Shown piece by piece: positions 1 to 51,108 of a stretch of 64,000 nt of DNA. Made by a program: the position numbers and the translations under genes. A model generated the notes under the pieces. The model saw only the letters and a list, made by a program, of their open reading frames with translations. It was not told the DNA's origin and searched no databases. Numbering within the stretch: position 1 is the stretch's first letter; every line of letters starts with the position of its first letter. Source of the DNA: Escherichia coli (lineage in GTDB: Bacteria > Pseudomonadota > Gammaproteobacteria > Enterobacterales > Enterobacteriaceae); NCBI RefSeq assembly GCF_048403405.1, contig NZ_CP183129.1; one strand, given 5' to 3'.

Positions 1-296
1 CTGGTGCGGTAATATTTGTTACCTCTGCTGTAGAGTATCCTGTTCGTCGTCGTGTACTCTTGTCGATACTCAGCTTTCTTTGTGGTCTTCTCTTTTACAA
101 ACCAACAACATCAATTCTTATCGGAATAGCCAGCATGATACCTACCATCACGCAGGACTCTTTCGAGAAAGGGATTGTTTTCTCTGCTGGCGCATTCGTG
201 TCAGCAATTGTCGCAGTGCGAATTGGTATATGGCTCTATCACCGCTCCGATAATCCACGCGACTTAATTCAGGGGAGAAAAGGCGATGGTAACTAA
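1..296 (+). CDS. 5'-truncated membrane protein in the phage lysis region (holin/antiholin-like); reading frame open from the window edge
   Basis: Frame 3 is open from nt 3 to TAA at 294-296 (track ORF 60..296 is its TTG-initiated tail). Hydrophobic segments LLSILSFLCGLLFY and IVFSAGAFVSAIVAVRIGIWLY. Overlaps the next gene start by 11 nt. Confidence 0.4.
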   Translation, partial: GAVIFVTSAVEYPVRRRVLLSILSFLCGLLFYKPTTSILIGIASMIPTITQDSFEKGIVFSAGAFVSAIVAVRIGIWLYHRSDNPRDLIQGRKGDGN

Positions 297-594
297 TGAG
301 CTTGTTTTGCTTATCACCAATGCAATTATTTGTACTGGCATAGCAATTCGCGTTGTCACATTCCGGCGTAACGGCTCTCAACATCGAAGATGGGGAGGGT
401 GGCTTGCTTATTTCCTTATTGTTGCTGCGGCCAGTATTCCTGTTCGAGTCGCCTATGCAATCTGGTTACGTACGCCAATGGCTGTGGATTTATCTGAGGT
501 CATTATCAACGCTGTCATGCTTGCCGCGGTTATTAAAACACGCGGTAACGTTGTTCAGATTTTCAAAACATCGAGGTCTAAACATGGAGATTAA
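286..594 (+). CDS. putative phage holin (102 aa, about three predicted TM helices)
   Basis: ATG at 286 with GGAG about 10 nt upstream. Hydrophobic helices ([43 protein letters not shown]) and a charged C-terminus. Sits immediately upstream of and overlapping the endolysin. Confidence 0.45.
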
Positions 595-1213
595 ACAATT
601 CCAGCGAGCTGCTGGTATTAGCGAGGCTCTGGCCGCACGCTGGTTCTCGCATATAACTTCTGCGATGAAAGAGTTTGGTATCAGAAAACCCGAAGATCAG
701 GCAATGTTTATTGCTCAAGTCGGGCATGAGTCTGGGGGCTTCACTAGGTTGCAGGAGAATTTCAACTACAGCGTCACAGGACTGGCTAACTTTGTTCGGG
801 CAGGACGTCTCACTCAGGGACAGGCCAACGCATTGGGGCGACGCGCAGGCGAACCACCATTGCCACTTGAGCGCCAGAGAGCGATTGCCAATCTGGTGTA
901 CAGCAAACGCATGGGGAACAATGCCCCCGGCGATGGCTGGAATTACCGTGGCCGCGGACTTATCCAGATTACCGGTTTGAATAACTATCGTGATTGCGGA
1001 AACGGCCTGAAAGTGGACCTGCTGGAGAATCCTGAACTGTTGGCGCAGGACGAATACGCGGCTCGTAGCGCGGCGTGGTTCTTCTCCAGCAAAGGTTGCA
1101 TGAAGTATACCGGCGATATTGCACGTGTAACTCTGATTATCAATGGTGGCAGGAATGGCATCGACGACCGGCGCGCGCGGTACGTCACTGCCAGTAAGGT
1201 GCTGGCTGTATGA
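584..1213 (+). CDS. phage endolysin, glycoside hydrolase family 19 (chitinase-like lysozyme)
   Basis: Track ORF 353..1213 trimmed to the internal ATG at 584 (codon 78), which is preceded by GAGG. Motifs QVGHESGGF and [15 protein letters not shown] resemble GH19 signatures. No N-terminal TM segment, so a holin-dependent endolysin. Confidence 0.8.
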
Positions 1214-1692
1214 TCTGGTCATTCGTAAAAGCATACCGTAAACAGTTGATTATCATGGCGGTGCTTGCTGTTCTGGTCATATCAGGAGTTGTTGCCTGGA
1301 ATGTGCACGGCAGTCGTCAGTACGACGCTGGGTATGCACAGGCGAAAGAAGACCGCAAAACCGAAGATGAGAGAGTTCGTCAGCACTACGAACAGGAGAA
1401 ATCGATCAATGAACGTGAAGCGCAGCAGAGGATCGACCAGGCGCGCAATGATGCTCTTGATGCTGCCGCTCGCGCTGGCCGGTTGCAGCAACAGCTCGTT
1501 GCCATCCGTGAGCAGCTCAGGCACTATAACGCCATTGTCGGCGCTGGGTCGTCAGCCGCAGACACCGGAGTTTTGCTTGCCGACGTGTTCAGCAAATCTC
1601 TCGAGAGAAATAGACAACTGGCAGAGTATGCTGACCGGGCAGCCGAAGCCGGAAGAGTCTGCGAAAAACAGTACGACACCCTGACCAGATAG
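1210..1692 (+). CDS. Rz-like inner-membrane spanin (i-spanin)
   Basis: ATG at 1210 overlaps the endolysin stop (ATGA). N-terminal TM ([18 protein letters not shown]) followed by a charged, Q/R/E-rich coiled-coil-like region. Position is right after the endolysin. Confidence 0.65.
1409..1684 (+). CDS. Rz1-like outer-membrane spanin lipoprotein, embedded in the +1 frame of Rz
   Basis: Internal ATG at 1409 in track ORF 1265..1684, with AGGAG 11 nt upstream. Signal peptide [25 protein letters not shown] followed by Cys (lipobox LAGC). Pro/Ser-rich mature part. Fully nested inside Rz. Confidence 0.5.
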   Translation: MNVKRSRGSTRRAMMLLMLPLALAGCSNSSLPSVSSSGTITPLSALGRQPQTPEFCLPTCSANLSREIDNWQSMLTGQPKPEESAKNSTTP

Positions 1693-1844
1693 CATGGCAT
1701 TTTTCATGGTACTGATTTCCGGTGACGGTATATAAAACGGTACGAGAAAAATTTATCTTTGGAAAAATGTTATCACTCAATTGGTTATGTGTGTCGTAAA
1801 TAATTGAGTGGGAATGATTTTGATCCCTGCACTATGAATGAACA

Positions 1845-1873
1845 AAACCCTCTGTTACTACAGAGGGTTTTTT
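1845..1873. terminator. bidirectional rho-independent terminator (downstream of yfgI on the minus strand, also closes plus-strand transcription)
   Basis: CCCTCTG-ttacta-CAGAGGG stem-loop, followed by T6 on the plus strand and T4G on the minus strand. A second hairpin CTTCAAG-n9-CTTGAAG lies at about 1876-1898. Confidence 0.55.
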
Positions 1874-1911
1874 ATCTTCAAGAATTATAGGCTTGAAGTT
1901 ACTTACATCGA

Positions 1912-2451
1912 TTAATTAAACCAGCTGTCCGATTTGTTCTCTTCTGCTTTGCCCACGCTTTTCATCAGATCTCGACCGCCCTCAGTCATATTCCTGTTTG
2001 CGTCAGCTTCAGATTGCACCACATCGGTTTGCGCAGCTTTGTGCTTCAGTTCCTGATCGATAAATTCGTTTTCTCGCTTAACGCGGGCTTCTTCTTTCGC
2101 CAGCGCCAGTTTTTGTTTCTGAATCTCTAAGCTGCGTAGCTCATCTTGATAACTTTGATCGCGTTTTTTGTCCGCAGAGGCTTCGGCGTCCAGTTTATCC
2201 TGACGAGCTTTCTTATTTGCCGCTGCCGTTGCCGCTCTTTTGTTAGCGGCGGCCTGGGCGTTTGCGCGACGTTGCTTCTCTTGCTGGATTTCCCTGTTGC
2301 GCTCCGCGACCCATTCGTCATGCTGCCTTTGCTCTTCATTTTTACCTTGCTGTTCCGCTTCTGCGACAGCAGAGAGTTGATCCTGCAATGATGAGGCGAT
2401 AGCCGGATAGCTTAAGGAGGCTAAGATGGCGCAAAGAAAAACTTTCTTCAT
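1912..2451 (-). CDS. yfgI: uncharacterized protein YfgI
   Basis: 179-aa track ORF recognised as E. coli YfgI (signal peptide, K/E/A-rich coiled-coil-like body). Conserved position next to yfgH. Confidence 0.9.
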   Translation of the reverse strand: MKKVFLCAILASLSYPAIASSLQDQLSAVAEAEQQGKNEEQRQHDEWVAERNREIQQEKQRRANAQAAANKRAATAAANKKARQDKLDAEASADKKRDQSYQDELRSLEIQKQKLALAKEEARVKRENEFIDQELKHKAAQTDVVQSEADANRNMTEGGRDLMKSVGKAEENKSDSWFN

Positions 2452-2466
2452 GACTCCTCCTGATCA

Positions 2467-2985
2467 TTAGCTCTTTTCAGGACATTTGGTATTTGGCTGA
2501 ATACGCGTTTCGTTATACGTCGTGGTAATAACAACGGCTAAACCTGTCGTAAACTGGCACTCTTTACCCACCTGGGTGGAGGTATACACTTTGGTGCCTT
2601 CCTTATACGTTAGAGAAACACCTTCCACTAAGGTTTTATCATTCACCATAGAACCCGCTGCCGCGCCAACAGCTCCGCCGCCAACTGCACCTGCCGTCGT
2701 TCCGGAATTGCTGCCAGACCCGACGTTGTGGCCAATAACACCGCCAGCGACTGCACCAATAAGCGCGCCGAAGGCTTGTGCGTTTCGTTTATTTTGGGAG
2801 TTGTCTACGGCAACTTTTGCGGGAAGAATGGAAATAATATTAACGGTTTTAGTTTCTTGTTTGGTATTCAGTTGAACGGTTTGATAAACATCGGCGGCAT
2901 GATCATCAGCATTTGACTGGCATCCTGCCAGAGTGAATGACGCTAACATTACCACAGGCAGAAGACATTTTTTAAATTTCATCAC
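2467..2985 (-). CDS. yfgH: outer-membrane lipoprotein YfgH (glycine-zipper)
   Basis: 172-aa track ORF. Lipoprotein signal ending in LAGC. Gly-rich zipper GALIGAVAGGVIGHNVGSGS. Synteny. Confidence 0.9.
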   Translation of the reverse strand: MMKFKKCLLPVVMLASFTLAGCQSNADDHAADVYQTVQLNTKQETKTVNIISILPAKVAVDNSQNKRNAQAFGALIGAVAGGVIGHNVGSGSNSGTTAGAVGGGAVGAAAGSMVNDKTLVEGVSLTYKEGTKVYTSTQVGKECQFTTGLAVVITTTYNETRIQPNTKCPEKS

Positions 2986-3295
2986 TATTCCTTGTTATAC
3001 ACATTACGAAAAATAAGACATTTAAGATCATCAAAAAAGGAAAGTAAATGTATTGCGTATTAAGGAATAGATTAAATTTATTAAAATTCATGTGGAAAAT
3101 AATTTATAAAAATACATCATTAAAACATATGTATTAATTTTATATTTATTTCGCAGCCAAACAGGATAAACATCAGTCAGGACAAAGACGTAAAATTTAA
3201 GATGAAAGAATATCTGCCGCTTTGATAATCCCAAAGAGCAAAAGCATCCGACAGCGAGGTGCCGTTATGTTCTGTGAAAGTGGAGAAGGTAACCG

Positions 3296-3487
3296 CTAAC
3301 GTTGTACCGGTGATTCGACGGAGAGTGTGGATTGCTGAGCTTCTTTTTTGCTCTGATGGTGCTGCCATGCACCGACGGACGAGTAGATAAAACGGCCAAA
3401 GAAGAAGATAAAGCTGATGAGCAGTACGATACGGGTCATGCGACTGTTAAATCGGTGTCGTTTTCGCATACTGGTTGCCTGACTCAC
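3296..3487 (-). CDS. yfgG: small membrane protein YfgG
   Basis: 63-aa track ORF matching E. coli YfgG with a single TM (IVLLISFIFFFGRFIY). Synteny. Confidence 0.85.
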   Translation of the reverse strand: MSQATSMRKRHRFNSRMTRIVLLISFIFFFGRFIYSSVGAWQHHQSKKEAQQSTLSVESPVQR

Positions 3488-3697
3488 AAAAGGTTCCTTG
3501 AAGTATGTCCCACGCTGTGGACGGTACTTACATTAAGGCACAACAGGACAAAATGGTCAATTCTTCGTTATGTAAAAAAGCGTCAGTGGATACATATTTT
3601 AATGTTATGGAAGTTAATTTAATTATTTACAATGATGATGTAATAATGATGAATTAACATGATAAACGTAATAATTCATTAATCAGGGTTATTTTGT

Positions 3698-3711
3698 TTG
3701 ATATATATCAA
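3698..3711 (+). promoter_or_regulatory. FNR-type binding site (TTGAT-N4-ATCAA) of the pdeF promoter
   Basis: Perfect palindrome TTGATatatATCAA, about 134 bp upstream of the pdeF ATG. A TAGAAT -10-like hexamer at about 3733-3738 places the site near -41.5 (class II geometry). Confidence 0.6.
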
Positions 3712-3838
3712 TTGGAACTTTCATATGACACTTAGAATCAATGCTCTCTATAGTGATGAATAATCATCATTCGAAGTCAGGTGGGATGCCTGTCTGAATA
3801 CACCTCCTTCAGGATGTGGGGGATTCTGCTGAGCATCT

Positions 3839-6082
3839 ATGAAACTGAATGCAACTTATATAAAAATACGTGATAAATGGTGGGGGCTTCCGCTGTTCCT
3901 GCCTTCTTTAATCTTGCCCATTTTCGCCCACATTAATACTTTCGCGCATATTTCTTCCGGTGAGGTTTTTCTCTTTTATCTGCCTCTGGCTCTGATGATC
4001 AGCATGATGATGTTTTTCAGCTGGGCGGCATTGCCAGGGATCGCCTTAGGGATTTTTGTCCGCAAATATGCAGAGCTGGGTTTTTACGAAACGCTCTCAT
4101 TAACGGCTAATTTTATTATCATTATCATTCTCTGTTGGGGCGGTTACAGGGTCTTTACTCCCCGGCGTAACAACGTTTCACATGGTGATACCCGTTTAAT
4201 TTCCCAGCGTATATTCTGGCAGATTGTGTTTCCTGCAACGCTGTTTCTGATACTTTTCCAGTTTGCTGCGTTTGTAGGATTACTGGCGAGCAGAGAAAAT
4301 CTGGTCGGCGTCATGCCTTTTAATCTCGGGACCTTAATCAATTATCAGGCCTTACTGGTGGGCAATCTGATTGGTGTCCCGCTGTGCTACTTCATCATTC
4401 GTGTAGTGCGAAATCCGTTTTATTTACGTAGTTATTATTCGCAATTAAAACAGCAGGTTGATGTCAAAGTCACCAAAAAAGAGTTCGCACTCTGGCTACT
4501 GGCATTAGGTGCTTTACTGCTGCTGTTATGCATGCCGTTAAATGAAAAAAGCACAATTTTTAGCACCAACTATACCTTGTCATTATTGCTGCCCCTGATG
4601 ATGTGGGGAGCGATGCGCTATGGTTATAAGCTGATTTCGCTGCTCTGGGCGGTCGTGTTGATGATCAGCATCCACAGCTATCAAAATTACATTCCCATTT
4701 ATCCTGGCTATACCACGCAGCTGACCATAACCTCCTCCAGTTATCTGGTATTCTCTTTTATTGTCAATTATATGGCTGTACTGGCAACCCGTCAGAGAGC
4801 GGTTGTCAGACGCATTCAGCGGCTTGCGTATGTGGACCCGGTAGTTCATCTGCCAAATGTTCGCGCCCTGAATCGCGCGTTGCGTGATGCCCCCTGGTCT
4901 GCGCTTTGTTATTTACGCATCCCTGGCATGGAAATGCTGGTTAAGAACTATGGCATCATGCTGCGGATTCAATACAAGCAAAAACTTTCTCACTGGCTGT
5001 CACCCTTGCTGGAACCGGGTGAGGATGTTTATCAGCTTTCGGGTAACGATCTCGCGCTGCGACTGAATACAGAATCGCACCAGGAGCGCATTACCGAACT
5101 GGATAGCCATCTCAAGCAATTTCGTTTCTTTTGGGATGGAATGCCGATGCAACCGCAGATTGGCGTCAGTTACTGCTATGTGCGCTCGCCAGTGAATCAT
5201 ATCTACCTGCTGCTGGGAGAGCTAAATACGGTCGCCGAACTTTCCATCGTGACCAACGCCCCGGAAAATATGCAGCGTCGCGGGGCAATGTATTTGCAAC
5301 GCGAATTGAAAGATAAAGTCGCGATGATGAATCGACTACAGCAGGCGCTGGAACACAACCATTTTTTCCTGATGGCCCAGCCGATTACCGGTATGCGTGG
5401 CGATGTCTACCATGAAATTCTTCTGCGCATGAAAGGTGAGAATGATGAACTGATCAGCCCCGACAGCTTCTTGCCGGTCGCGCACGAATTTGGTTTATCG
5501 TCGAGTATCGACATGTGGGTCATTGAGCATGCGCTGCAATTTATGGCTGAAAACAGAGCGAAGATGCCCGCTCACCGTTTTGCCATTAATCTGTCGCCAA
5601 CCTCGGTATGTCAGGCTCGTTTTCCCGTTGAAGTCAGTCAGCTGCTGGCTAAATATCAAATTGAAGCGTGGCAACTTATTTTTGAAGTCACCGAAAGTAA
5701 TGCTCTGACAAATGTTAAGCAGGCGCAAATCACCTTGCAGCATCTTCAGGAATTAGGCTGCCAGATTGCGATTGATGATTTCGGCACCGGCTACGCCAGC
5801 TATGCGCGGCTTAAAAATGTGAATGCCGATCTGCTTAAAATTGACGGCAGTTTTATCCGCAATATTGTGTCAAATAGTCTGGATTATCAGATAGTGGCGT
5901 CGATTTGCCACCTGGCGCGAATGAAGAAAATGCGGGTAGTGGCAGAGTACGTTGAAAACGAAGAGATCCGCGAGGCGGTGCTCTCTTTGGGGATCGATTA
6001 TATGCAGGGTTATCTTATTGGTAAGCCGCAACCGTTAATTGATACGCTGAATGAAATCGAACCCATTCGCGAAAGTGCCTGA
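3839..6082 (+). CDS. pdeF: cyclic-di-GMP phosphodiesterase PdeF (membrane N-terminal domain, degenerate GGDEF, EAL)
   Basis: 747-aa track ORF recognised as YfgF/PdeF. Multi-TM N-terminus. EAL-domain motifs (DDFGTGYASYARLKNVNADLLKIDGSF). Confidence 0.93.
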   Translation: MKLNATYIKIRDKWWGLPLFLPSLILPIFAHINTFAHISSGEVFLFYLPLALMISMMMFFSWAALPGIALGIFVRKYAELGFYETLSLTANFIIIIILCWGGYRVFTPRRNNVSHGDTRLISQRIFWQIVFPATLFLILFQFAAFVGLLASRENLVGVMPFNLGTLINYQALLVGNLIGVPLCYFIIRVVRNPFYLRSYYSQLKQQVDVKVTKKEFALWLLALGALLLLLCMPLNEKSTIFSTNYTLSLLLPLMMWGAMRYGYKLISLLWAVVLMISIHSYQNYIPIYPGYTTQLTITSSSYLVFSFIVNYMAVLATRQRAVVRRIQRLAYVDPVVHLPNVRALNRALRDAPWSALCYLRIPGMEMLVKNYGIMLRIQYKQKLSHWLSPLLEPGEDVYQLSGNDLALRLNTESHQERITELDSHLKQFRFFWDGMPMQPQIGVSYCYVRSPVNHIYLLLGELNTVAELSIVTNAPENMQRRGAMYLQRELKDKVAMMNRLQQALEHNHFFLMAQPITGMRGDVYHEILLRMKGENDELISPDSFLPVAHEFGLSSSIDMWVIEHALQFMAENRAKMPAHRFAINLSPTSVCQARFPVEVSQLLAKYQIEAWQLIFEVTESNALTNVKQAQITLQHLQELGCQIAIDDFGTGYASYARLKNVNADLLKIDGSFIRNIVSNSLDYQIVASICHLARMKKMRVVAEYVENEEIREAVLSLGIDYMQGYLIGKPQPLIDTLNEIEPIRESA

Positions 6083-6120
6083 ATAATGCGGGCCGACATT
6101 TCTTGTCGGCCCGCAAAGCA

Positions 6121-9733
<3,613 letters not shown>

Positions 9734-9904
9734 TACCACTTTTACTCCGTTTTATTCACGGGACACTGCCTGGATATTATGGCGAGCAATATTGGCAGAT
9801 GTCCAACTATGCCAGAAAAGGGGGAAAAAAACTGCTGGAGCTTGCGATTTACAGGTGAATTGAAAAACGCCAGCGGCAGAGCTGGCGCTTTAACTACGGG
9901 GGCA

Positions 9905-10542
9905 TTACTCGTCGGCAGCGTAGCCCTGCGGCGGCAGACGTTGACCATCCAGCCACGCGGCGTTTTCGTGCATTTTCAGACGACCATCGGCAAACCAGCT
10001 AATCACCAGTGGATAAATAGCGTGTTCCTGGGTTTGCACGCGGGCGGTGATGTCATCTTCCGTATCACCAGCAAATACCGGGACTTTCGCCTGTAAAATA
10101 ACCGGGCCACCGTCCAGTTCATCGGTGACGAAATGCACCGATGTACCGTGCTCTTCATCGCCATTTTCCAGCGCCTGACGATGGGTGTGTAATCCGGGAT
10201 ATTTCGGCAGCAGAGAAGGGTGAATGTTCAGCAAACGCCCGGCATAGTGGGAGACAATCGCCGGGCTGAGAATGCGCATAAAACCAGCCAGCACGACCAC
10301 ATCGGGTGCGTACATGTCGATTTCATGAATCAACTCCCGGTCATAGGCTTCACGACTGTCAAACGCGCTGGCGATGAGCGTATGCGTTGCAATACCCGCC
10401 TGGCGGGCGCGTTCAAGGCCGAACGCGTCGGCCTTATTGCTGAAAACTGCCCGTACGGTGCCTTTAATTTTATTGGTTTTGCAGGCGTCAATAATTGCCT
10501 GCAAATTACTTCCGTTGCCGGAAATAAGCACCACAATATTCA

Positions 10543-10543
<1 letters not shown>
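9905..10543 (-). CDS. purN: phosphoribosylglycinamide formyltransferase
   Basis: 212-aa track ORF (MNIVVLISGNGSNLQAIIDAC). Directly downstream of purM. Confidence 0.95.
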
Positions 10544-11598
<1,055 letters not shown>

Positions 11599-11643
11599 TT
11601 ACTTGCGGTAGAAAAATAAAATTCGGCGCAATTCTAACAGGGA

Positions 11644-11659
11644 AAGCAAACGTTTGCGA
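11644..11659. promoter_or_regulatory. PurR operator of purMN
   Basis: aAGCAAACGTTTGCGa palindrome (reverse complement TCGCAAACGTTTGCTT), about 65 bp upstream of the purM start. Matches the PurR box consensus. Confidence 0.6.
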
Positions 11660-11856
11660 GACTGCTTTACACAACCTTTTTGCACGTCTTTTCCCCAGGC
11701 GCGCGGCGAAAGAATACTTGTACCAGGGCAAAGGATCGTTTTCGGATGGAATAATCTTCTTCCATAACCATTTGAATACAAAATAACTTTATCTCAAACC
11801 GTTATCATTTTGACTAAAGTCAACGAAAATAATATTGCCGCCTTGAAGAAAGGAGG

Positions 11857-11878
11857 TATAATCCGTCGATTTTTTTTG
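11857..11878 (+). promoter_or_regulatory. upp promoter -10 (TATAAT) and initially transcribed GATTTTTTTTG tract (UTP-sensitive reiterative transcription)
   Basis: TATAAT at 11857-11862, then CCGTCG, then G-A-T8-G at 11868-11878, about 27 nt upstream of the upp ATG. Confidence 0.6.
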
Positions 11879-11904
11879 TGGCTGCCCCTCAAAGGAGAAA
11901 GAGT

Positions 11905-12531
11905 ATGAAGATCGTGGAAGTCAAACACCCACTCGTCAAACACAAGCTGGGACTGATGCGTGAGCAAGATATCAGCACCAAGCGCTTTCGCGAACTCGCT
12001 TCCGAAGTGGGTAGCCTGCTGACTTACGAAGCGACCGCCGACCTCGAAACGGAAAAAGTAACTATCGAAGGCTGGAACGGCCCGGTAGAAATCGACCAGA
12101 TCAAAGGTAAGAAAATTACCGTTGTGCCAATTCTGCGTGCGGGTCTGGGGATGATGGACGGTGTGTTGGAAAACGTTCCGAGCGCGCGCATCAGCGTCGT
12201 CGGTATGTACCGTAATGAAGAAACGCTGGAGCCGGTACCGTACTTCCAGAAACTGGTTTCTAACATCGATGAGCGTATGGCGCTGATCGTTGACCCAATG
12301 CTGGCAACCGGTGGTTCCGTTATCGCGACCATCGACCTGCTGAAAAAAGCGGGCTGCAGCAGCATCAAAGTTCTGGTGCTGGTCGCTGCGCCAGAAGGTA
12401 TCGCTGCGCTGGAAAAAGCGCACCCGGACGTCGAACTGTATACTGCATCGATTGACCAGGGACTGAACGAGCACGGATACATTATTCCGGGCCTCGGCGA
12501 TGCCGGTGACAAAATCTTTGGTACGAAATAA
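11905..12531 (+). CDS. upp: uracil phosphoribosyltransferase
   Basis: Track ORF 11878..12531 trimmed to the ATG at codon 10 ([16 protein letters not shown], 208 aa). RBS AAGGAG. Confidence 0.95.
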
Positions 12532-12549
12532 AGAATAAAAATAATTAAA

Positions 12550-12577
12550 GCCGACTTTAAGAGTCGGCTTTTTTTTG
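12550..12577 (+). terminator. intrinsic terminator/attenuator between upp and uraA
   Basis: GCCGACT-ttaag-AGTCGGC hairpin followed by T8. Confidence 0.6.
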
Positions 12578-12616
12578 AGTAAAGCGCCTATAACACATAA
12601 TACAGAGGATAATACT

Positions 12617-13906
12617 ATGACGCGCCGTGCTATCGGGGTGAGTGAAAGACCGCCACTTTTACAGACAATCCCGCTTAGTTTGCAACATTTGTTCGCCATG
12701 TTTGGTGCAACCGTCCTGGTGCCCGTCTTATTTCATATTAACCCGGCGACTGTACTGTTATTTAACGGTATAGGAACGCTGCTGTATCTCTTCATCTGTA
12801 AAGGGAAAATCCCGGCTTATCTTGGTTCCAGCTTTGCCTTTATTTCACCGGTATTGTTACTGTTGCCGTTAGGGTATGAAGTCGCGCTGGGCGGCTTTAT
12901 TATGTGCGGCGTGCTGTTCTGCCTGGTTTCTTTTATCGTGAAGAAAGCGGGGACCGGCTGGCTGGACGTGCTGTTTCCACCTGCGGCAATGGGCGCAATC
13001 GTTGCCGTCATCGGTCTGGAGCTGGCGGGCGTAGCTGCCGGTATGGCAGGTTTACTCCCGGCTGAAGGGCAAACGCCAGACTCCAAAACCATCATCATCT
13101 CCATTACCACCCTGGCAGTCACGGTTTTAGGTTCCGTGCTGTTTCGTGGTTTCCTGGCAATTATCCCGATTTTAATTGGCGTGCTGGTGGGTTACGCGCT
13201 CTCTTTCGCAATGGGAATTGTCGATACCACGCCGATTATTAATGCTCACTGGTTTGCGCTGCCAACCCTCTATACGCCGCGCTTCGAGTGGTTTGCCATT
13301 CTGACTATTCTGCCAGCGGCGTTAGTGGTTATTGCCGAACACGTAGGGCACCTGGTGGTAACGGCTAATATCGTCAAAAAAGATCTGCTGCGCGATCCAG
13401 GTCTGCACCGTTCGATGTTTGCTAACGGCTTGTCGACCGTGATCTCCGGCTTCTTTGGCTCCACGCCAAACACCACCTACGGGGAAAACATTGGCGTGAT
13501 GGCGATCACCCGTGTTTACAGTACCTGGGTTATCGGCGGGGCGGCGATTTTCGCTATCCTGCTTTCCTGCGTCGGTAAACTGGCTGCTGCTATCCAGATG
13601 ATCCCATTGCCGGTGATGGGCGGCGTTTCGCTGCTGCTTTATGGTGTCATCGGTGCTTCCGGTATTCGTGTTTTGATCGAATCGAAAGTGGATTACAACA
13701 AAGCACAGAACCTGATCCTGACTTCCGTGATTTTGATCATCGGTGTCAGTGGCGCGAAGGTAAACATCGGCGCGGCGGAGCTGAAAGGTATGGCGCTGGC
13801 GACCATCGTCGGTATCGGCTTAAGTTTGATCTTCAAAATGATTAGTGTGCTGCGCCCTGAAGAAGTGGTGCTGGACGCAGAAGACGCGGATATAACAGAC
13901 AAATAA
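12617..13906 (+). CDS. uraA: uracil permease (NCS2 family)
   Basis: Track ORF 12575..13906 trimmed to the ATG at codon 15 ([20 protein letters not shown], 429 aa). Polytopic membrane protein. Confidence 0.95.
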
Positions 13907-14000
13907 TGTACCGACCGGGCAGTGTTGCTGCCCGGTTCAAACATCATGGGATTCTGTGGTAAACTTCTCGCGATTTTGTGAAATCCTGGTTGAGGTATCT

Positions 14001-14702: not shown

Positions 14703-14740
14703 ACAAGACGTTTATTGTCGGAAATGCACCCATAGTATTC

Positions 14741-14780
14741 GTCGGCCGGATAAGACGCGGCAAGCGTCGCATCCGGCAAT
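14741..14780. repeat. REP (repetitive extragenic palindrome) element
   Basis: GCCGGATAAGACGCGGCAAGCGTCGCATCCGGC palindrome between the convergent hda and yfgD ends. Confidence 0.6.
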
Positions 14781-22589: not shown

Positions 22590-24305
22590 TTACTTCAGCG
22601 GCGAACGGTTACGATCAATGCCGTAGCGTTCGATCTCTTTATACGGCACGGTTTTTGACTGGCGCTTGCGCACATCAACCAGCGTCACACGGTCGGTACA
22701 GGAGTAGCAGGGATCAAGGCTACCGATAATCAGCGGTGCGTCAGAAACGGTATTGCCGCGCAGCATGTAACGCAGCACTGGCCAGTTGGCGTAGGTGGCG
22801 GCACGACAGCGCCAGCGGAACAATTTTTGGTTATCACCGAGCATGCTCCAGTGCACGTCTTCACCGCGTGGCGCTTCAACAAAGCCCAGCGCGAATGCGT
22901 GAGGTTTATAGCTAAAGCCTTCGGTCAGCAGTGGGGTATCCGGCATGTTGTCGAGGGCAAATTCCAGCATTGCCAGCGAATCAAACGTCTCTTTGACACG
23001 GACCATCACGCGGGAGAAGACATCGCCGCCGGTAAAGGTAAACAGCGTTTTTGGAATATTGCCGTAGTCGGCGTAGGGGTGATCAAAGCGCAAATCACGG
23101 GCAAAGCCACTGCCGCGGATCAGCGGCCCTACGGGGCTATAATCACGGGCGATTTGTCGGTCGAGAATGCCAATGCCCTGAGTGCGTTGTTCCATATTTG
23201 GCGTGGCAAGCAGCATCTCTACCAGCTCCGACACGTCGGCGCGCATCTCACGCACCAGTTTCAGCGTTTGCAGACGTTGCTCTTTGAGAATATCGCGGCG
23301 AACACCACCAATCAGATTCAGACCGTAGGTTTTACGCGACCCGGTCAGCAGTTCCGCCATCGTCATCGACTTTTCCCGCACGCGGAAAAATTGCATAAAG
23401 CCGGTATCAAAACCAACAAAATGGCAGGAGAGGCCAAGGTTGAGCAAATGACTATGCAGCCGTTCGACTTCCAGCAGAATCGAGCGAATAGTATGCGCTC
23501 GTTGCGGCACCTCAATCCCCAGTGCATTTTCAACCGAGTTGGTATAGGCCACACTGTGGGCAAAACCGCAAATCCCACACACGCGGTCGGATAAGAAGGT
23601 CACTTCGTTGTAGCCCATCCGCGTTTCTGCCAGTTTCTCCATGCCGCGATGGACATAAAACAGGCGGTAATCAGCATCGACAATTTGCTCGCCATCCACA
23701 AACAAGCGGAAGTGACCTGGTTCATCGGAGGTGATATGCAGCGGGCCGACAGGGATCACCCGCGCGTCGCTGTTGCCCTCGTTGATAAACGGATACGTTT
23801 CGGTATCAGTCGTCGGTTCAGGGCGCAGTCGATAATCCATCGCATCTTTGCGCAGCGGATGCATATCTTCCGGCCAGTCATCGGGCAACACCAGGCGACG
23901 CTGATCCGGCAGGCCAACCGGAATCAGCCCGTACATATCGCGAATTTCTCGCTCGCCCCAGACCGCGGCAGGGACGCGCGGTGTGACTGACGGAAACTCC
24001 CGACTGTCGGCATCGACCAGTGCCTTCACCACGATCCAGCATTTTTCAGCCCCTTCCATTGAAAGGGCATAATAAACCGCGTAATGACCGTTAAGTGTCC
24101 GCTCGTCGTTGCCAAACAGGACCGGAAGCCAGCCATCATGTTGATAATAAAGATAATGTACAACGTCAGGCAGCAGATTGATTTTCACCGTAATGGTGAC
24201 CTGTTCAGGCGTTTGTCGCTCTTCATCCAGCACCGCGCCGGGGAACTGCGTTTTCAGGGCGGCGAGAATCGCTTCGCCACGATTTGACGATGAATTAACG
24301 TTCAC
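22590..24305 (-). CDS. hyfG: hydrogenase-4 catalytic large subunit HyfG (NiFe, HycE-like)
   Basis: Track ORF 22590..24350 with HycE-like sequence and a C-terminal DPCYSC NiFe ligand motif. Start set at the in-frame GTG at codon 16 ((M)[11 protein letters not shown]); the exact start is uncertain. Confidence 0.88.
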
Positions 24306-25875
24306 TGTGTTTCTCCGAAACAGATGCGGTGCCTGAAGGCAAAAAATCATGCCAGGTGCTACGTTGTGCAGGCAGGTCGTGCGTCCCTGAGAGGACTATA
24401 GTGGAAGCGCCCGCCAGGATCCTGATGACAGGTTGTGGAATATGCGTTCCCATCGCCAGCATCATGACCAGCAGAATCACCATTGGCGAGGTGGTCAACC
24501 AGCCAAGTTCACCCCGGTTAACGGCCTGCGGCGGTTTCGCCATTAACACCCGCGCAGCCATCCGTACCAGGCCCGCCAGCACCAGCGTTAACAGCAATAA
24601 CAGCAGGACGATAATCAGCAGGTGATTACGTGCCAGTCCGGCGGTAACGGTCATAAATTCGCTAAGAAAAATGTTGAAGGGCGGCATCCCTGCCAACGCC
24701 AGCGCACCGCCGCCAAACAGCACGGCGGTAAATGGCATGATTTTAAGCATTCCGCAGACGACGTTGAGATCGCGCGTGCCGTACTTGAGCAGTACATTGC
24801 CGGAACCGCAGAACAGCAGCGTTTTTGCCAGACTGTGGTTTAAGGTGTGCAGCAGCGCAGCAAAAATTCCCAGCGGCCCGCCAATGCCTAGCGCCACCGC
24901 GACCAGTCCCATGTTCTCCACGCTGGAGTACGCCAGCAGACGCTTAATGTCCCGCTGTACCAGAATGAAAAATGCCGCCACGGCAACCGACAACATGCCG
25001 AAGATGAGCAACAACCGGTTGGGGAAATCGCTGCCGATGGCCTGGCAGATAATGATGTAATAGCGAATCAGCACCAACAGCGCGCAGTTCAGCAATACGG
25101 CGGAGAGCAGGGCGCTGACCGGACTCGGCGCTTCACTGTGAGCATCCGGCAGCCAGGCGTGCATGGGAAATAGCCCGGTTTTGGTGCCAAAGCCAATTAG
25201 CACAAACACAAAGGCCAACAGCATTAATGTTGGGTCAAGCAAGGACGATTGCTTAAGAACCTCGCTCCAGAATATCGCCATTTCTGCCTGCGGCATAACG
25301 CTGGCGGCGTTGGCGTATACCAGCACGGTACCGAACAGACCAAAAGCGACACCAACAGTACAAATAATGATGTACTTCCATGCAGCTTCCAGCGATGAAC
25401 GCTGACCGTAAATGCCTACCAGAAACGCCGAGCTTAAGGTGGTGGCTTCGATCGCCGCCCACATCACAATCAGGTTATTGCTGGTAACAACCAGCAGCAT
25501 GGTGAACAAAAACAGATGGAAGAAACCGTAGTAATCGCACAGCGTAACGGGTGAAAGCTCGCCGTGCTCCACTTCATGACGCATGTAGCCAATCGAGTAA
25601 ACACCGGTGAGAAAGCCAATCACACCAAGAATGGCGAGGAACAAACCGCCCAGACCATCAATATGAAGCCACAGTCCCGCAGCGAATATTTCTCCCGCAT
25701 CAGCGGCAGTTTGGACCACCCACAGTGCCAGAATCAGCAGCAGTGTGATCCCTAAGCTATGTAGTACTGTCACCGTGCGAGTCGCAGAGTGCCCCTGTTT
25801 CCGGCAGGCAAAACAGAGCAGTGAAAAAAGCAGCGGCGTGAGCAGGAGTAAAGCGAACATCACAGAATAACTCAT
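24295..25875 (-). CDS. hyfF: hydrogenase-4 membrane subunit HyfF (antiporter-like, NuoL/M/N family)
   Basis: 526-aa polytopic track ORF. Position in the operon. Confidence 0.93.
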
Positions 25876-39725: not shown

Positions 39726-39793
39726 GCCGGGTAGGCCTGATAAGACCGTATCAGGCATCATGGCCGGATGCGGCGTTAACGCCTTATCCGGCC
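39726..39793. repeat. pair of REP elements (BIME-like) between ypfH and ypfN
   Basis: GGCCTGATAAGACCGTATCAGGC and GGCCGGATGCGGCGTTAACGCCTTATCCGGCC palindromes. Confidence 0.6.
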
Positions 39794-39800
39794 ACTCAGC

Positions 39801-51030: not shown

Positions 51031-51070
51031 ACAAAATCCCAGATGCGCCCCTATAAAGCGCACGGACCGT

Positions 51071-51108
51071 CCCCTCGCCCCTCTGGGGAGAGGGTTAGGG
51101 TGAGGGGA
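51071..51108. repeat. GC-rich imperfect palindromic intergenic element (unclassified)
   Basis: CCCCTCGCCCCTCTGGGGAGAGGGTTAGGGTGAGGGG between the convergent ypfG and tktB 3' ends. Confidence 0.35.

Follow-up and report, generated by a model that had tools for sequence, protein, structure and literature searches.

A probable Uetakevirus prophage end, with its lysis cassette against the attR junction, at the 3' end of guaA in Escherichia coli

Based on the sequence comparisons presented here, positions 1-1819 of the window (the whole 64,000-nucleotide stretch of Escherichia coli DNA that was analysed; NCBI RefSeq assembly GCF_048403405.1, contig NZ_CP183129.1) represent, with a probability of about 0.9, one end (attR, on the right) of a temperate Uetakevirus podovirus prophage integrated at the 3' end of guaA. 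With the same high confidence, the prophage is of the epsilon15 / phiV10 / phiv142-3 / vB_EcoP_ZX5 type and was integrated by its own tyrosine integrase into a 17-bp core. We have demonstrated the sequence identity to this group, the gene order, the att core and its junction, the strain-specific presence of the element and the intactness of the visible genes; all the genus features that can be tested in the window match (similarity, gene order, attP arm and core at the junction). The phage-specific DNA runs from 1 to 1802, and is followed by the att core common to phage and host (1803-1819) and by chromosomal intergenic DNA (1820-1911). The original prediction had given the phage DNA an extent of 1-1911, which holds for 1-1802 and fails for the shared core and for the ordinary chromosome beyond it. 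A prophage end at guaA is in itself ordinary: this is a known, experimentally characterised phage group at a known integration site.

According to the list of open reading frames and their translations, positions 1-1692 contain five ORFs on the plus strand, and neighbouring lysis genes share 4-11 nt, an arrangement like that of one operon. All the ORFs that had been named in advance as a lysis cassette in the first 1.7 kb are thus present on this strand, and PHROGs places every cassette protein in a lysis family, with E-values from 1e-35 to 6e-92. The first gene (1-296, plus strand, frame 3) encodes a membrane protein and putative holin, of which the window contains the last 97 codons, that is the 3' two-thirds, up to the stop at 296. 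It is cut by the window edge and not by a mutation: position 1 of the window corresponds to base 107 of the full gene for a 133-aa protein in the nearest relatives, and 106 nt are missing in comparison with their 402-nt gene. The product is assigned to Pfam Phage_holin_8 (PF16931 is on record for the 133-aa gene in the near-identical loci L016-L023, discussed below) and to the PHROG 198 holins (E = 1.2e-38); it is a homologue of epsilon15 gp23, and 88 of the 97 visible residues are identical in the comparison with epsilon15. The second gene (286-594, plus strand) encodes a holin of 102 aa (Pfam Phage_holin_3_7; PHROG 217 holin, E = 4.5e-35; PF05449 on record for the equivalent gene of the relatives), with three hydrophobic segments at residues 1-26, 38-61 and 64-84, a basic C-terminal tail and the same length as in epsilon15 and phiV10. 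Both membrane proteins combine holin sequence features with matches to holin families, and both are regarded as putative holins, of which one may be an antiholin.

The third gene (584-1213, plus strand) encodes a GH19 (chitinase-like) endolysin of 209 aa, which lacks a signal or SAR segment; a hydropathy scan of this protein found no hydrophobic segment or leader. It aligns without gaps over residues 1-208 to the structurally solved endolysin of Salmonella phage SPN1S (PDB 4ok7; E = 4.5e-117), from which the predicted window protein differs at about 15% of residues, and it belongs to the PHROG 181 endolysins (E = 5.7e-92), with PF00182 (Glyco_hydro_19) on record for an identical protein. A segment of 14 residues is identical to 4ok7, and E49 and E58 (SPN1S numbering) are present in the window protein. 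These two residues, inside the conserved 14-residue segment, are presumably the two catalytic glutamates of the SPN1S endolysin. The cassette ends with two spanin genes. The first (1210-1692, plus strand) encodes an Rz-type inner-membrane spanin of 160 aa (DUF2514; PF10721 on record; PHROG 312 Rz-like spanin, E = 1.2e-58), with an N-terminal transmembrane segment corresponding to the hydrophobic residues 6-35. The second (1409-1684, plus strand) lies wholly inside Rz in the +1 frame and encodes an Rz1-type outer-membrane lipoprotein spanin of 91 aa, with the lipobox LAGC at the end of its signal peptide (PHROG 11621 Rz-like spanin, E = 1.3e-40); its position and length match the annotated Rz1 of epsilon15 and phiV10. 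None of the four full lysis genes has an internal stop, and their lengths (102, 209, 160 and 91 aa) are exactly those in epsilon15 and phiV10. The codon changes that separate the window from phiV10 are mostly synonymous, with synonymous to non-synonymous counts of 31:8 for the endolysin, 29:10 for the membrane protein and 31:20 for the holin.

Following the established holin-endolysin-spanin model, together with the family assignments above, lysis may be expected to proceed in three steps. Late in the induced cycle, one or both of the membrane proteins would accumulate as holins and permeabilise the inner membrane, presumably with a division of labour between the two. The soluble cytoplasmic GH19 endolysin would then escape and cleave the peptidoglycan, and a spanin complex of Rz in the inner membrane and Rz1, the outer-membrane lipoprotein, would finally disrupt the outer membrane. 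The functional logic is that of lambda S-R-Rz/Rz1 (holin, endolysin, embedded two-component spanin), and the embedded architecture of Rz1 is the same. Nevertheless, the two systems differ in several respects: the lambda endolysin is a transglycosylase, whereas that of the window belongs to GH19; lambda relies on the S105/S107 dual start, whereas the window has two membrane proteins of holin families; and the lambda cassette sits in the middle of the genome, whereas that of the window adjoins attP.

The closest phages were identified by a megablast search against phage genomes. Over window 1-1819, nucleotide identity is 97.3% with phiv142-3 (MN187550), 97.1% with EC.W1-9 (PP445227), 92.8% with vB_EcoP_ZX5 (MW722083), 89.9% with phiV10 (NC_007804) and 82% with epsilon15 (NC_004775), the epsilon15 / SPN1S group as a whole being at 81-82%. 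The phage matches that cover at least 80% of the query are all of Uetakevirus type or are prophage records with the same module. A lambdoid prophage remnant was considered and rejected, a lambdoid match being absent from this search. The Uetakevirus phages phiv142-3 and EC.W1-9 have four to five lysis genes in common with the window, in an unchanged order, and differ from it by about 50 substitutions; the phiv142-3 record begins exactly at the att-core boundary. The phage vB_EcoP_ZX5 has an identical 17-bp att core and integrates at guaA (PMC9782041). Plaques are formed by this free phage, whose lysogen is induced spontaneously, and among the phages compared here it is the only one for which induction with excision and virion production is documented (PMC9782041). 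The founding members of the genus, phiV10 and epsilon15, share with the window the cassette-attP-integrase order, the att core and the Int arm-type 11-mer, although the amino-acid identity of the holin to that of phiV10 is only 81%, and the host of epsilon15 is Salmonella rather than E. coli. The O-antigen modification genes found upstream of the cassette vary among Uetakevirus members and would here lie to the left of the window.

The gene order of epsilon15 and phiV10 explains why the cassette touches the chromosome. In these phages the tailspike gene is followed by the O-antigen modification genes, the membrane protein, holin, endolysin and Rz/Rz1 genes, attP and the integrase gene; in both records the Int and IHF sites come directly after Rz/Rz1 and precede the tyrosine integrase gene. 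With attP placed between Rz/Rz1 and int, integration leaves int at one end of the prophage and the lysis cassette at the other, so that in any Uetakevirus prophage attR should be bordered by the lysis genes. Of the two explanations that the original prediction had offered for a lysis cassette at the junction, a genome organisation unlike that of lambda is thus borne out, attP coming directly after the lysis genes. Its view that the position is unusual or hints at decay does not stand, the position being normal for the genus; the earlier reading, based on lambdoid phages, had been misled by a cassette that lies beside attP rather than in the middle of the genome.

The junction itself is resolved to single nucleotides. 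The stop codons of Rz and yfgI are separated by 219 nt, in agreement with the 220 bp or so estimated beforehand, and this interval is the one in which phage and host sequences meet. Its first part, at 1693-1802 (plus strand), is the P arm of attP (the phage arm of attR), which aligns without gaps with the attP of epsilon15 and phiV10. This arm contains at 1721-1731 (plus strand) the integrase arm-type site GGTGACGGTAT, an 11-mer that matches the annotated epsilon15 integrase site and occurs once per attP arm in epsilon15 and phiV10, and once each in attL and attR of the Ecol_881 prophage described below. Two putative IHF sites are located at about 1771-1813 (plus strand), by homology with the protein_bind features of epsilon15. 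The att core ATTGAGTGGGAATGATT, which spans 17 bp at 1803-1819 (plus strand), is the crossover region and the attR junction. It consists of the last 15 nt of guaA (I-E-W-E-stop) plus TT and, in an alignment with the Rz-yfgI interval, is common to attB (K-12), attP (phiV10, epsilon15) and attL/attR (Ecol_881). Homology with K-12 starts exactly at 1803, and every match to a free phage ends at 1819/1820. The core occurs as a single copy in the window, where 0 are expected by chance. A second copy was sought across the 64-kb window and none was found, which fits an attL some 40 kb further upstream. For vB_EcoP_ZX5, phiV10 and epsilon15, this 17-mer has been published as the att core (PMC9782041); integration of vB_EcoP_ZX5 at the 3' end of guaA has been verified by junction PCR and Sanger sequencing (PMC9782041), and insertion at guaA was also reported for the related phage TL-2011b (PMC3293862).

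On the host side of the core, positions 1820-1911 are the native guaA-yfgI spacer, which is present in K-12 attB and is 100% identical to the empty site of strain 4621; this identity led us to reject these positions as phage DNA. The spacer contains at 1844-1871 a terminator-like hairpin of 12 pairs, AAAACCCTCTGTTACTACAGAGGGTTTT, followed by a T-run. In a lysogen, the phage lysis operon is now followed directly by the host's own guaA/yfgI terminator. To the right, the host core genes begin with yfgI (DUF5384; 1912-2451, minus strand), which lies outside the prophage. In K-12, yfgI is followed by guaA across a 92-bp spacer and phage genes are absent, as had been stated in the original prediction. 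The integration event can be envisaged as follows. Recombination between attP and attB would open the circular phage genome between Rz/Rz1 and int, placing int beside guaA (attL, outside the window and some 40 kb further left) and the lysis cassette beside yfgI (attR). The phage copy of the core, which supplies the final 15 nt of guaA, would restore its reading frame and so rebuild the gene at attL.

A complete prophage of this kind is found in the E. coli lysogen Ecol_881, where it lies between two copies of the core 40,617 bp apart, in the order guaA-int ... lysis-yfgI. Its genes include int, an MT-A70 methylase, RecT, a repressor, replication genes, terminase, portal, capsid, core proteins, tailspike and lysis genes. 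The direct repeats asked about at the ends of the element would be the published 17-bp core, seen at 1803-1819 in the window and as a pair in Ecol_881. When considering 5426 complete E. coli genomes, the lysis end was counted in 530 (about 10%), at a threshold of at least 80% of window 1-1911 matched, and the int-attL end in 567; nearly all the remaining genomes match only the roughly 109-bp host part.

The presence of the element is specific to the strain. The chromosomal part of the window from 1912 to 14000 is 100% identical to six complete genomes, and site occupancy was checked in five of these six. In four (4621, TUM14771, MS 69-1 and TUM1226), guaA is directly beside yfgI and the site is empty. 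We therefore regard the prophage as strain-specific and as a recent acquisition; its absence from K-12 and from these close siblings agrees with the strain-specific phage DNA proposed initially. In the fifth genome, isolate 68, the site holds a different Uetakevirus variant, with 95.2% identity over window 1-2538, and essentially all the differences from the window fall in the phage part. Within one host lineage, the guaA site has therefore been occupied on independent occasions. The element is also the only accessory DNA in the window relative to K-12, as had been claimed: positions 1803-64000 are colinear with K-12 MG1655 from yfgI through the eut operon at 97.6-98.2% identity, and in the comparison with MG1655 no other accessory DNA and no indel above 48 bp was found.

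This distribution also bears on whether the cassette might be a lysis module domesticated by the host, for instance for vesicle, toxin or DNA release, and retained independently of the phage life cycle. The purifying selection on the cassette genes would be compatible with such a role, but it is not specific to it, and an active phage would equally show it. Moreover, only about 10% of E. coli genomes have the cassette, which is missing from four of the five closest siblings checked, occurs together with phage tail genes in every locus examined, and is flanked by an intact attR arm with predicted Int and IHF sites. We thus consider domestication highly improbable, and the prophage end remains by far the better reading.

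Is the prophage complete? A search of an assembly collection found the exact Rz protein in 3046 blocks, the Rz-bearing loci being 96-97% identical to the window, and the exact endolysin protein in 113 blocks. Among the 23 contigs with the exact endolysin that were examined, loci L016-L023 show 99.0-99.6% identity over window 1-1911, and several of the exact-endolysin loci differ by only 2-3 nt across 1-1802 (99.9%; positions 271 and 1754). None of the exact-endolysin loci examined matches window 1-1911 at 100%, the best reaching 99.6%, or 99.9% over the phage part. All of L016-L023 carry to the left an 883-aa tailspike (Peptidase_S74) together with tail and core genes. Further left, the same variant has T7_gp14-like core proteins, the major capsid protein, the portal protein and the large and small terminase subunits (TerL, TerS), and other Uetakevirus members continue with replication genes, the repressor, RecT, MT-A70 and the integrase. 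This leftward order was pieced together from the contigs of relatives, and its last step was made through a widespread 112-aa protein and hence through other genomes. Because the visible genes are intact, the codon changes are mostly synonymous, and relatives 2-3 nt away have full structural modules, we favour a prophage that is probably complete rather than a remnant, the window itself starting inside the element, and we infer that a functional remainder of it is present in this strain.

The alternative of a decayed remnant, raised by the original prediction, would imply a deletion of most of the Uetakevirus genome that left the lysis cassette, alone or together with tailspike genes, stranded beside yfgI. 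The window does open inside the element; prophage records of 13-19 kb that include the cassette exist (Phi05_1387 B and YDC107_2), which may be contig or prediction fragments; and the int-end and lysis-end counts (567 and 530) are slightly unequal. However, the four complete genes are intact, with the lengths seen in plaque-forming phages, the phage part is 2-3 nt from prophages with full morphogenesis modules, and attR is precise to the base. In addition, the insertion looks recent, four of the five siblings being empty, which leaves little time for decay. A remnant is therefore disfavoured and, in our estimation, unlikely; the rest of a probably complete element would simply lie beyond the window.

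What is mildly individual about this prophage is its sub-variant, and nothing else. The best match to the window's variant among the 5426 complete E. coli genomes is 97.2%, and the sub-variant is thus rare among finished genomes. The nearest relatives of the window carry the 883-aa Peptidase_S74 tailspike, whereas the commoner variant has a tailspike of 709 aa and pectate-lyase type. In the comparison with the E. coli prophages that score similarly, of the common ST648 type, the differences cluster in window 1-900, while 900-1700 is almost identical; this pattern of substitutions suggests that the window sub-variant is a mosaic when set against the common ST648-type prophage. The region 1-900 comprises the membrane protein gene, the holin gene and the 5' half of the endolysin gene. 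A more speculative proposal, which we hold to be doubtful, is that the element is either a truncated tailspike/lysis fragment that the host could still fire, recently stranded at attR by an internal deletion, or a complete member of a rare Uetakevirus sub-lineage. As to the latter, the variant with the 883-aa Peptidase_S74 tailspike does not exceed 97.2% identity in any of the 5426 genomes.

More generally, a lysis cassette at a chromosomal junction is evidence neither of decay nor of a strange phage where attP adjoins the lysis genes. For annotation, the prophage boundary can be fixed to the base, with the core at 1803-1819, and guaA is left intact. The strain is a probable lysogen of a family of serotype-converting podoviruses carried by roughly one in ten complete E. 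coli genomes.

The guaA site is empty in four of five complete genomes whose host backbone is 100% identical (4621, TUM14771, MS 69-1 and TUM1226), and in the fifth (isolate 68, NZ_OX030728.1) it holds a different Uetakevirus variant, which differs from window positions 1-2538 by about 119 mismatches, nearly all of them in the phage part. Sequence comparison thus indicates that the same guaA site has been lysogenised independently within one host lineage.

When window positions 1-900 and 900-1700 were compared with the commonest E. coli prophage variant (L001/L006), 47 of the 53 differences fell before position 900, in the genes for the membrane protein and the holin and in the endolysin gene's 5' half, whereas the Rz region was nearly identical; this distribution suggests phage mosaicism, with a recombination breakpoint within the endolysin gene. 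In the prophages most closely related to the window's, the tailspike encoded immediately upstream of the lysis cassette is 883 aa long and bears a Peptidase_S74 domain, an intramolecular chaperone, at its C-terminus (6563-9214 in L016-L022, 5204-7855 in L023; also 16430-19081 in L024), whereas that of the commoner variant (L001, L006-L015) is a 709-aa protein of the pectate-lyase type. The tailspike difference is a putative swap of the receptor-specificity module. In a single relative (L010, GCA_014106225.1), an IS200-type Y1 transposase gene (PF01797; 10806-11264) separates the prophage Rz from yfgI, within or adjoining the attR/terminator interval.

Outside the prophage, the intact hyfG ORF of the window (22590-24350, minus strand) carries 48 more bases than that of K-12 MG1655, at about 23097, corresponding to 16 in-frame codons. 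A search for a local direct repeat accounting for this 48-base difference found none, and it may reflect an in-frame deletion in K-12. Small clusters of 3-23-bp indels with higher divergence from K-12, at about 14723-14750, 39734-39800 and 51041-51085, may be variable intergenic repeat elements.

At the attachment site, the hairpin AACCCTCTGTTTTTACAGAGGGTTTTT belongs to attP itself, being present in both phiV10 (about 5864-5896) and epsilon15, and it is found in the attL of L001 at about 5150-5180; in the att alignment it occupies columns about 175-205. This hairpin and the host guaA terminator AACCCTCTGTTACTACAGAGGGTTTTTT (window 1844-1871) have the same 9-bp stems, so that the similarity between attP and attB reaches past the 17-bp core. 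After integration, guaA gains a phage-borne replacement terminator at attL, and its original terminator now lies downstream of the lysis operon at attR. The likeness between hairpin and terminator may be the footprint of host-derived DNA in attP.
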